IMG/VR virus record: IMGVR_UViG_3300029288_004137
Span: 1-64,000 of that record
Source: a virus
Lineage: Duplodnaviria > Caudoviricetes
Strand: one strand, 5' to 3'
DNA: 64,000 nucleotides
The position numbers and the translations under genes are program-made. How positions within the stretch are numbered: the first letter of the stretch is position 1; every line of letters starts with the position of its first letter. Below are positions 48,690 through 51,085 of the stretch, piece after piece. A model generated the notes under the pieces. The model was not told the origin of the DNA, ran no database searches, and worked only from the letters and a program-made list of their open reading frames with translations.

Positions 48690-49014
48690 TAATAATGATC
48701 TTCAACAAGTTAAATGTTTGGTTGAAAATGATGCTGATATTCATGTTTATTATGAAGAACCTTTACGATTGGCAGTATATAATAATTATTTTGATATTGT
48801 TAAATATCTGGTTGAGCACGGCGCTAATATTCGTGCCAGTTGTGATTGGCCATTAAAATGGGCGTTTCAGTATGGTTATTTTAATATTGTTAAATATTTG
48901 ATTTCTTGTTATAAAAAATTTGAATTAAAAGAATTGTTTTCTGAAATCAATAGTTTTTATATTAAATACTTAATATTAGAAAGGTTATATAATGAATCTT
49001 TATGTTGCAATTAA
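48667..49014 (+). CDS. ankyrin cassette
   Basis: About two repeats plus tail. Confidence 0.9.
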   Translation: MNLIDAVDNNDLQQVKCLVENDADIHVYYEEPLRLAVYNNYFDIVKYLVEHGANIRASCDWPLKWAFQYGYFNIVKYLISCYKKFELKELFSEINSFYIKYLILERLYNESLCCN

Positions 49015-49333
49015 AAAAAACGATCTTCAAAATGTTAAAAAATATCTTAAAGAAGAAAATGAAAATAATTATAATTTAATTCTACGATATGCAATATTAT
49101 ATGGTAATCTTGGTATTATTAAATATCTGATTGAAAATGGTGCCAATATTCATACTAGTATTGATTATCCTTTAAGACATGCAGCAAAACGTGGTTATTT
49201 TGATGTTGTTAAATATTTGATTTCTTGTTATTCCGATATAGAATTAAAAACATTATTATTTGAAGTTGATAACTTCTATGTTAAATTCTTAATTTTAGAA
49301 TTTTTTCAGAAAAAATTTTCAAAAAATATTTGA
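48992..49333 (+). CDS. ankyrin cassette (last of array)
   Basis: About two repeats; tail diverges after LILE and the AAAGG SD is lost. Confidence 0.88.
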   Translation: MNLYVAIKKNDLQNVKKYLKEENENNYNLILRYAILYGNLGIIKYLIENGANIHTSIDYPLRHAAKRGYFDVVKYLISCYSDIELKTLLFEVDNFYVKFLILEFFQKKFSKNI

Positions 49334-49387: not shown

Positions 49388-49627
49388 TGCAAAATACGTG
49401 CCAACCGTCTAGGTGTACCTAGTACCGGGGGGGTGTCTCATTATACCACATTGCTTTTCACTTGTCAAGAAAAATCGACATGGCATAGTTATTGCATATT
49501 GCTTTTTATTGTCATTGTTCCTTCACTGTTTATGCTCTAAGCATACCATACCTCGAAATGATTGTCAAGAAAAATCGACATGGCATGGTGATTGCATACT
49601 GAAGATGTATATGCAATCACCGTGCCA
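49388..49627. promoter_or_regulatory. four sigma54 -24/-12 consensus boxes
   Basis: 49388-49403(-) TGGCACGTATTTTGCA; 49481-49496(+) TGGCATAGTTATTGCA; 49581-49596(+) TGGCATGGTGATTGCA; 49612-49627(-) TGGCACGGTGATTGCA. Confidence 0.75.
49440..49468 (-). promoter_or_regulatory. perfect sigma70 promoter firing toward the end of the ankyrin array
   Basis: TTGACA-17-TATAAT with TGn extension. Confidence 0.8.
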
Positions 49628-49632
49628 ATCAT

Positions 49633-49962
49633 TTACGCATTCAATCGCTTATTGATAAGCGTATTGATATCATTTACAAAGGTATCTAATTCCTCTTTGA
49701 TATTATCAAAGAGCTCTTCAATCCTTTCCAGTTCTTCGTTTGCTTCTCTGATTTCACAGGAAGCAAAGTCAATCAATTCCAATGTCGCAGGATCATCATT
49801 CAATATCTTTTCTCGAAGCTCTTCGCATACTTCCTCTTTATCTTCTTCAAGCTTCTCGACATAAGCACATTGTTCGTCAACCTTTTTGGCAAGGCAATCT
49901 CTTTCGTTGGTAAGCTGATTGATTCTTTCCATTGCGGATTCAAGTGTAAAGGTCTTTTTCAT
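49633..49962 (-). CDS. acidic coiled-coil protein
   Basis: ORF with promoter at 49992-50020 and GAGGG SD. Confidence 0.75.
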   Translation of the reverse strand: MKKTFTLESAMERINQLTNERDCLAKKVDEQCAYVEKLEEDKEEVCEELREKILNDDPATLELIDFASCEIREANEELERIEELFDNIKEELDTFVNDINTLINKRLNA

Positions 49963-50044
49963 TGCTTTGTTCCCTCACTGTTTATGCTCTAAGCATACCA
50001 TACCTCGAAACGATTGTCAAGAAAAAAACAACTGGAAATCTAAT

Positions 50045-50335
50045 TCTATTACCTTTCTTCCGGTGATAGAGAAAAAGCATCATGCTTCTTAATTCTATTT
50101 ATATGTTAACTCCTTGATATTATTCAATTCACATTTTATTGTATCACTTTTCTCTAGTGAAGAGAAAAGAATCATGCTTTTTAAAATCTATTTGTATGTT
50201 AACTCCTTGATACTATTCAATTCACATTTTTTGGTATACTTTCTTTCCAGTGAAGAGAAAGAGGTATGAATTGAATATCATGTAAGTATTGTTAACACTA
50301 TGATAACATTCAATTCATACTTTTTGGTATACTTT
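50045..50335. repeat. three 93-bp tandem units, each with a hairpin and an IHF-like site
   Basis: Minus-strand TATCAAGGAGTTA at 50107 and 50200; TATCATAGTGTTA at 50293. Confidence 0.75.
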
Positions 50336-50375
50336 TTCTTATATAAAGCGCAATCATCTTAAGCATTAAGTTTTT

Positions 50376-50899
50376 AACTGTTTCTTTTCAAACCGGCTTA
50401 TCTCGTATATGATTCATTGTATCACCGTTAAATTAATTGTTTTTAATACAAAGATGATATATTCAATATAACAAAAATTGTTCAGGACCATCTCTAATTG
50501 AATTCATTGTTTTATCGCCTTCAATTGCATTTACGGAAGTTTAAAAGGCACCTGATATAATTCTGTTATAAAGCGCCTATCAAATACAATCATCATTCTT
50601 ACGTACAAGTTTAACAAGTCATGACAATTGTTAATTGTTGTATAGAACAATACTTCATTCTATTTTATCGTCAAGAAAACAGCATTGTATTTGATAGACT
50701 TATTCAATGTATTTTATAACCAATCACCTTCCTTTCAAAGAGAAAACATAAAATCATATCTTGTTTCCATTGCTTATAATAGACCATTCCACTCAAGGCC
50801 CAATGAAATCTATTGCGTCAGCTCTTGGTCAGGCTAGTTTATTTTAACGCGCTACAAGACTTTGACTTTGCTTATGTTTCTTTGTTAAAAAAAACAGTT
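50376..50899 (-). ncRNA. putative large multibranched ncRNA
   Basis: No ORF of 60 aa or more; nested stems 50376-50388/50887-50899 and 50577-50590/50684-50697. Confidence 0.4.
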
Positions 50900-50926
50900 G
50901 ACAAACAGAATCAAATGTGGTAAAAT
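50898..50926 (+). promoter_or_regulatory. sigma70 promoter with no downstream plus-strand gene
   Basis: TTGACA-17-TAAAAT with TGn extension. Confidence 0.6.
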
Positions 50927-51085
50927 CGGATTAAATCCGATTTTTTTCTGTTATAAACCCGAAGTTATGCCATAAAATGATTCTATTTTTGTAACCATGT
51001 TAAATCATGGTACAATTTGATTGAAACATTTGGAACATTTCAATTTTATTCATAATTTAAAAGAGCGAGGGATTTACTTAATTGC

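Follow-up and report, generated by a model that had tools for sequence, protein, structure and literature searches.

A cluster of candidate sigma-54 binding sites in a gene-free gap of an uncultured T4-like jumbo phage, and comparable site clusters in unrelated phages

The usual interpretation of a sigma-54 site is that of a bacterial gene promoter dependent on an activator, and the sigma-54 holoenzyme is unable to open DNA unless an activator ATPase is present. What, then, is to be made of four consensus-grade sites of this type that lie together in phage DNA with no gene behind any of them? This question was raised by a sequence-only reading of the first 64,000 nucleotides (henceforth the window) of IMG/VR virus record IMGVR_UViG_3300029288_004137, a genome of 209,974 bp that is complete by CheckV. 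The record represents an uncultured T4-like jumbo phage with a G+C content of 28%; it carries a major capsid gene of the T4 type, whose nearest cultured relatives share 33-49% identity with it and have Flavobacterium, Rhodothermus and Microcystis as hosts. The host of the phage itself could be inferred neither from these capsid relatives nor from the protein atlas, and an RpoN-containing host, which the sequence-only reading took the boxes to imply, is plausible. The features of the locus, in order along the window, are the following.

48992..49333, plus strand: last ankyrin-repeat gene of the plus-strand array, the left flank of the convergent junction
49388..49403, minus strand: box 1, TGGCACG-N4-TTGCA preceded by T, with a spacer of its own (TATT)
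49427..49433, no strand: G7/C7 run separating P3 from box 1; no other G or C run of at least 7 exists in 210 kb
49440..49468, minus strand: P3, predicted promoter TTGACA-N17-TATAAT with TG (extended -10), no ORF behind it
49481..49496, plus strand: box 2, TGGCATA-N4-TTGCA, apparently a direct-repeat copy of box 3
49540..49568, minus strand: P2, predicted promoter TTGACA-N17-TATGCT with TG, start codon lost and an 8-codon ORF left
49581..49596, plus strand: box 3, TGGCATG-N4-TTGCA, one hairpin arm
49581..49627, no strand: boxes 3 and 4 face to face across a 15-nt gap, giving a 17/18-bp hairpin whichever strand is read
49612..49627, minus strand: box 4, TGGCACG-N4-TTGCA preceded by T, the other hairpin arm
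49633..49962, minus strand: gene of a 109-aa coiled-coil-like protein, after which the minus-strand early-type region has no further real gene
49693..49713, no strand: perfect palindrome (10-1-10) within the 109-aa gene; its centre lies some 103 nt upstream of the predicted box 4 start
49992..50020, minus strand: P1, predicted promoter of the 109-aa gene and parent copy of P2

All four boxes were recovered where the sequence-only reading had placed them, with TGGCAC at 49388 and 49612 on the minus strand and TGGCAT at 49481 and 49581 on the plus strand. Its impression that such words are rare in this genome was borne out: the window contains 4 matches to TGGCAY-N5-TTGCA against 0.04 expected (window shuffles, maximum 1), and a fifth match is absent from the whole 209,974-bp genome. 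The reading had further proposed a genome-wide scan, which outside the cluster returned 12 sites with at most 2 mismatches against 7.5 expected. As sigma-54-like sites elsewhere are thus near chance, the phage does not run on sigma-54 promoters and possesses one isolated cluster; phage-wide use of sigma-54 was rejected on the same grounds.

The GG and GC elements of every box lie exactly 10 bp apart, as in TGGCAC-N5-TTGCW and as in the bacterial RpoN -24/-12 promoters exemplified by glnAp2, pspA and those of Salmonella (PMC3844500). Boxes 1 and 4 carry, in addition, the consensus T before and G after TGGCAC; they match YTGGCACG-N4-TTGCA fully, equalling or bettering most of the ChIP-supported intergenic sites of Salmonella, both the consensus and these sites being those of PMC3844500. 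The phage boxes differ from the bacterial promoters in having neither a downstream gene or known RNA nor a recognisable enhancer, apart from the candidate near box 4 considered below; in the lack of a phage-encoded sigma-54 or activator, searches of the phage for the sigma-54 gene (PF04552) and the activator ATPase gene (PF00158) having found neither; and in their crowding, with four sites in 240 bp, two of which face each other 15 nt apart.

The cluster occupies a gene-free gap of about 300 bp between genes that do converge, as had been claimed, ending at 49333 (plus strand) and 49633 (minus strand). This gap marks the boundary between the minus-strand early-type region, which is rich in sigma-70 promoters, and the plus-strand ankyrin array of 23 genes. 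The assertion that no credible gene follows any box likewise held: the sole ORF candidate (plus strand, 49592..49864) is serine-rich and lies antisense to the 109-aa gene. Rfam yielded only sub-threshold microRNA-like matches to the hairpin and no family, the P2 and P3 transcripts fold no better than shuffles, and no significant fold was detected downstream of box 1. Two observations on the surrounding non-coding DNA may be recorded here. Decayed copies of the ankyrin-gene tail extend into the gap (repeats 49211-49230/49324-49343 and 49304-49320/49346-49362). Nearby, 1 kb at 50030-51085 is non-coding and repeat-rich, with 93-bp repeats, and within this block, at 50898-50944, a plus-strand TTGACA-N17-TAAAAT promoter is followed immediately by a 10-bp hairpin with a T run, an arrangement that would give a very short transcript or an attenuator.

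Searches by blastn, in IMG/VR and with proteins found no related phage that would show conservation of the box locus. The segment 49300-50100 had no blastn match among 50,697 phage records, and the 21-mer of the promoter leader had none in IMG/VR. Homologues of the 109-aa protein were absent from IMG/VR, and 5.8 billion proteins returned only the protein itself, whose protein cluster lists a second contig carrying the same protein. A relative found through RtcB (L001) is, at 43% identity, too distant for comparing the locus, and the three nearest capsid relatives of the phage contain no boxes, which counts against the reading favoured below.

Along the minus strand, the elements of the locus follow each other in the order P1, the 109-aa gene, box 4, the 15-nt gap, the complement of box 3, P2, box 2, P3, the C7 run, a 5-bp hairpin and box 1. 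P3 is the best sigma-70 consensus of the region (12/12 plus TG). Boxes 4 and 3 directly follow the P1-driven gene; counted from the predicted starts, box 2 occupies about +37 to +52 of the P2 transcript and box 1 about +30 to +45 of the P3 transcript. Transcripts started at P3 or at P2 would enter the tail of the array's last ankyrin gene in antisense. The sequence-only reading had emphasized that each plus-strand box sits 12 bp behind the -35 element of a minus-strand sigma-70 promoter. The distances proved exact, boxes 2 and 3 each lying 12 nt from the -35 element of a TTGACA-N17 promoter (P3 and P2, respectively), but the two cases amount to a single duplicated module of 40 nt. A sigma-70 promoter paired back-to-back with a box was, moreover, seen in none of 369 box contexts of other phages, and the combination was rejected as a recurrent design on those contexts. 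Each of the -35 hexamers of P2 and P3 is, in addition, the right-hand half of a short inverted repeat, TGTCGA-N6-TTGACA (49563-49580 and 49463-49480), which was copied with the 40-nt module. The ATTGCTTTT words at 49447 and 49495 were considered as T4 MotA boxes and rejected by eye, the -10 element not being at the right distance.

The G7 run at 49427, near which the reading had suggested looking for genome termini, is real, and the genome has no other G or C run of that length or longer. No evidence for a terminus or an origin at the cluster emerged, and both were rejected: the cumulative GC skew merely follows gene orientation. A packaging site at the cluster was dismissed as well, the terminase gene of this phage lying far away, at 166 kb.

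How many independent boxes does the locus contain? The 25-nt repeat noted earlier proved genuine and extends to a direct repeat of 40 nt, D2 (49462-49501/49562-49601, 93% identity), which covers a box together with a sigma-70 -35 element. A second direct repeat, D1 (73 nt, 90%), shows that P2 derives by decay from a copy of P1, leader and ribosome site included, and an inverted repeat, I1, links box 3 and box 4. Boxes 3 and 4 share the spacer GGTGA (5/5), boxes 2, 3 and 4 constitute one spacer family (GGTGA or AGTTA), and the regions of boxes 1 and 4 are related as a 24-nt repeat of 71% identity. Since boxes 2, 3 and 4 are tied by direct and inverted repeats, the four boxes represent about two independent events. 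Inverted copying of one box probably gave boxes 3 and 4; direct copying together with the -35 element would then have produced box 2, and box 1 is presumably older or independent. Judged from the repeats, box 2 is a recent direct-repeat copy of box 3; for the 3/4 pair, either a recent inverted duplication or additional selection as an RNA hairpin is possible.

This history raises the possibility that the likeness to sigma-54 sites is accidental, with a long hairpin ending or stabilising the message of the 109-aa gene, as a terminator or an RNase III site, and tandem duplication of promoter, gene and hairpin as one unit, with later deletions, leaving extra arms behind; the decay of P2 from P1 and its leader (D1) and the position of box 2 within D2 both accord with such an origin. 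The hairpin is very stable: its stem extends 2 bp beyond the boxes, the minus-strand RNA of 49555-49640 folds with -34.2 kcal/mol (z -7.2) and the plus strand with -32.1 (z -5.1), it is among the longest and most G+C-rich in the genome, and long-range folds add nothing to it. Box 4 starts 5 nt past the stop codon of the 109-aa gene, and box 1 likewise has a TAG stop codon 5 nt upstream; in RNA, the pair of boxes 3 and 4 would be the 3' hairpin of the gene's message, with a stable stem of 17/18 bp right after the stop codon, a feature shared with intrinsic terminators and RNase III hairpins at the 3' ends of phage mRNAs. A T5 run lies 6 nt beyond the stem on the minus strand. The locus nevertheless differs from these known hairpins in its 11-nt loop, in a U run that does not adjoin the stem, in an arm that is itself a sigma-54 box, and in extra unpaired copies of this arm nearby. 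The consensus scan for intrinsic terminators does not list the hairpin: the G+C-rich stem is there, but the 11-nt loop and the T run set off from the stem keep it out. The sequence-only reading had itself named, as the outcome that would refute it, a 49581/49612 pair acting only as a terminator hairpin: fully complementary spacers and a stable fold favour this, and absence from the terminator scan goes against it.

Box 1 provides an internal argument against an accident. Although it lacks a partner arm, it agrees with box 4 at 13/13 positions of TTGGCACG-N4-TTGCA and differs from it at 4/4 of the N positions, and a relic arm has no reason to decay in this pattern. If the two are old copies, the probability that four differences would be confined by chance to the four free positions among 17 is 1 in 2380; if they are unrelated, the chance of a second box within 250 bp is about 3 in 10,000, as estimated from the shuffle rate. 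On either calculation, the motif itself, and not a hairpin arm, appears to have been kept in boxes 1 and 4. Set against this is the look-elsewhere effect: over the approximately 250,000 windows scanned, the same shuffle rate predicts that a few box pairs within 250 bp will arise by chance, though the flanking consensus T and G of boxes 1 and 4 lower this expectation further.

A search of the 2.9 million viral contigs of IMG/VR for pairs of boxes in face-to-face orientation, separated by 5-25 nt, returned 89 loci. Clusters of 3-12 boxes (one mismatch allowed), within about 600 bp and in both orientations, surround 85 of the 91 viral loci examined, usually in ORF-poor gaps and often at divergent gene junctions. 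When the gap was fixed at 5 and the box spacers were left free to vary over 2-8 nt, 32 of 34 unique units used 5/5. The spacers of paired boxes agree at 0-3 of 5 positions in 80 of the 84 unique viral units, and because this is no more than chance likeness, it is the box and not a hairpin that has been kept. The same pattern in 596 Gb of bacterial genomes gave 32 loci, or 30 unique units. Fully complementary spacers occur in 15 of these 30 (with 4 more nearly perfect) as against 1 of the 84 viral units, and the 80 non-hairpin units from 2.9 million viral contigs, compared to 11 from 596 Gb of bacterial DNA, establish non-hairpin pairs as a viral feature. About a quarter of the bacterial matches are accounted for by an Acidimicrobiales MAG, OZ257146.1 (L096, L097, L103, L105, L110, L112 and L114), which has dispersed perfect 42-nt hairpins with arms matching the box (TGGCATGCGTYTTGCA) that look like a REP-like family.

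The viral boxes agree with the sigma-54 consensus also at positions that the search left unfixed: the base before TGGCA is T in 66%, the base after TGGCAY is G in 60% or A in 36% (purine in 96%), and the next base is again a purine in 72%. The strict 5-nt spacing and these consensus-like flanks, in many unrelated phage contigs, back the identification of the words as probable sigma-54 sites, as the sequence-only reading had recognized them. In the window, the fully complementary spacers of boxes 3 and 4 are a point against the sigma-54 reading, since they are as in the bacterial chance hairpins. In view of an entire class of phage loci that keeps its boxes without hairpins, together with the behaviour of box 1, we regard an accidental likeness as unlikely.

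Sorted by the proteins that they share within 4 kb, the viral loci form 23 groups (one of 62 and 22 small), with G+C contents of 34-61%. No nearby protein is shared between the groups, or between any of them and the window of our phage; a shared neighbouring protein as the binder was rejected, and this lack points to a host factor. A host factor is the simplest common binder, and sigma-54 is the obvious candidate for it. Two related jumbo-phage contigs of 395 and 236 kb have 13 exact boxes each, all within about 14 kb (G002:C1:141612-155957, L088, and G001:C1:61364-75709, L047), compared to 0 for the reversed control pattern; among these boxes are three face-to-face pairs, which lie 517-566 bp from each other and have unrelated spacers. 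Other arrays comprise up to 12 boxes at intervals of 21-26 nt. Runs of at least 5 G or C show a 4.4-fold higher density within the box clusters of other phages than in the flanks of these clusters, at no fixed position. At two loci (L018 and L057) the gap between the facing boxes contains CATATACGCGCGTATG, which we take to resemble the core of an N15-type telomere resolution site.

An alternative binder deserves consideration here, namely some other phage or host DNA-binding protein preferring T(G/T)GCA words one helical turn apart, in which case the boxes would be part of an origin, partition, packaging or switch region. The arrays of up to 12 boxes at 21-26 nt are too dense for a holoenzyme on each box, and at least 5 groups (L004, L068, L058, L085 and L079) have their cluster at a module boundary 0.1-3 kb away from the large terminase gene, a place at which to expect packaging sites or the DNA that enters first; in the window, the adjoining 1 kb at 50030-51085 is also non-coding and repeat-rich. 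Against this, the terminase of our phage is encoded at 166 kb, the cluster neighbourhoods of the 23 groups have no protein in common, and the motif follows the sigma-54 consensus even where another protein need not agree with it. Free sigma-54 without core could equally account for the dense arrays, and we consider a different binding protein very improbable.

How closely does the locus resemble these clusters (L004-L094)? It shares with them boxes in both orientations, at least 3 within a few hundred bp of non-coding DNA, a face-to-face pair (the 15-nt gap recurs in 5 of the 84 units), a nearby G/C run and the absence of boxes elsewhere, confinement to one genome region being true also of the two jumbo contigs G001 and G002. 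The spacers are non-complementary between box 1 and the others, but not in the 3/4 pair. Further differences lie in its small size (4 boxes, about 2 of them independent), in its convergent rather than divergent junction, and in its perfect-hairpin pair and interleaved sigma-70 promoters. As far as the sequence comparison can tell, clusters of such sites recur in many unrelated phages, and the one in the window is a small member whose boxes are in part duplicates.

If the boxes are sigma-54 sites, are they promoters? Genuine activator-dependent sigma-54 promoters would produce non-coding or antisense RNA here, with boxes 1 and 4 directed to the left, into the ankyrin array from its 3' end, and boxes 2 and 3 to the right, antisense to the 109-aa gene, and they would be switched on by a host enhancer-binding protein under some host condition. 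Several observations are in keeping with this: the full promoter consensus of boxes 1 and 4; the frequent location of face-to-face pairs of other phages at divergent junctions, where they could be two-way promoters; the spread of the boxes of the two jumbo contigs through a 14-kb gene region; and the two gene-less sigma-70 promoters that point in the same direction, suggesting that antisense transcription into the ankyrin array may be wanted. A precedent exists in the Pseudomonas phage YuA, which uses a mapped sigma-54-like promoter (Ceyssens et al. 2008, as cited in PMC10914365). A search for activator sites, usually about 70-150 bp upstream, found a recognisable candidate for box 4 only, the 10-1-10 palindrome at 49693-49713 about 103 nt upstream of the predicted start. 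Its position could be due to chance, there being about 40 such tight palindromes in 210 kb, and the palindrome is a weak candidate for an activator site. The predicted starts of boxes 3 and 4, furthermore, fall in the hairpin loop between these two boxes, and a gene for an activator is missing from the phage. The absence of an ORF, an Rfam family or a convincing fold downstream of box 1, and of a sigma-54 or activator gene in the phage, rules out a conventional promoter here, and we view activator-dependent promoters of non-coding RNA as somewhat unlikely.

With no gene at any box and no phage activator ATPase, occupancy of the sites, rather than promotion of genes, is the most likely role. 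We therefore tentatively favour, with a probability of about 0.4, the reading that the boxes are candidate sites for the host sigma-54 holoenzyme that would act by being occupied, damping P2 and P3, limiting read-through and possibly titrating sigma-54. Sigma-54 binding and each of the functional steps below are what we infer from the sequence of the boxes, their uniqueness and duplication history, the absence of genes and the recurrence of such clusters. Under occupancy, the phage would have kept -24/-12-type binding sites for the host sigma-54 RNA polymerase holoenzyme in a gene-free gap. A holoenzyme on the boxes would sit right behind the 109-aa gene and, in the transcripts of P2 and P3, neither of which has a gene, 30-50 nt from the start; it would also cover the upstream flank of these two promoters, which boxes 3 and 2 abut. 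From there it might damp P2 and P3 and reduce read-through across the convergent junction, and on replicated phage DNA scarce host sigma-54 may be tied up. The non-promoter role suggested by the sequence-only reading is thus reasonable to the extent that no box has a gene to drive, whereas the roadblock, repressor or decoy action that it named can only be inferred. We know of no work establishing that a closed sigma-54 complex stops an elongating polymerase.

Known systems provide partial parallels for occupancy. According to PMC4591121, the sigma-54 holoenzyme binds promoters in a transcriptionally inactive state, and the intragenic and orphan sigma-54 sites of E. coli and Salmonella described there and in PMC3844500 likewise serve no obvious gene; they are bound by the holoenzyme, with repression, interference (PMC3844500) and antisense RNA as the proposed roles. 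These orphan sites are single, mostly intragenic and sub-consensus, whereas the boxes described here are consensus-grade, clustered, intergenic and carried by a phage. Phage YuA resembles the reading given here in that a phage without an RNA polymerase of its own uses host sigma-54 besides sigma-70 (PMC10914365). It differs in having one promoter with a mapped start and genes behind it, compared to the gene-less cluster of the window, and YuA is a Pseudomonas siphovirus unrelated to this T4-like jumbo phage with its 28% G+C.

A broader proposal, which we put forward as doubtful, is that the gene-less box arrays of unrelated phages are docks or sponges for host sigma-54, free or as holoenzyme, that would shut down host responses such as the Psp membrane-stress and Rtc RNA-repair systems or would insulate phage units, the present locus being a minimal and recently amplified example. 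Our literature search did not find a description of sigma-54 box clusters in phages, and the only phage it found with sigma-54 promoter use was YuA (PMC10914365). In the phage studied here, the locus is the boundary between the early-type region and the ankyrin array, with two gene-less promoters pointing antisense into the array. If many phage lineages do keep gene-less clusters of consensus sites, the implications would be of two kinds: 1) a phage programme may be tied to host enhancer-binding proteins that the phage does not encode; or 2) the inert closed complex of sigma-54 may itself serve as a tool, in the form of a block, an insulator or a sink. The sponge reading, if true, would mean a takeover of host transcription by DNA sites alone, a form of takeover on which we found no paper.
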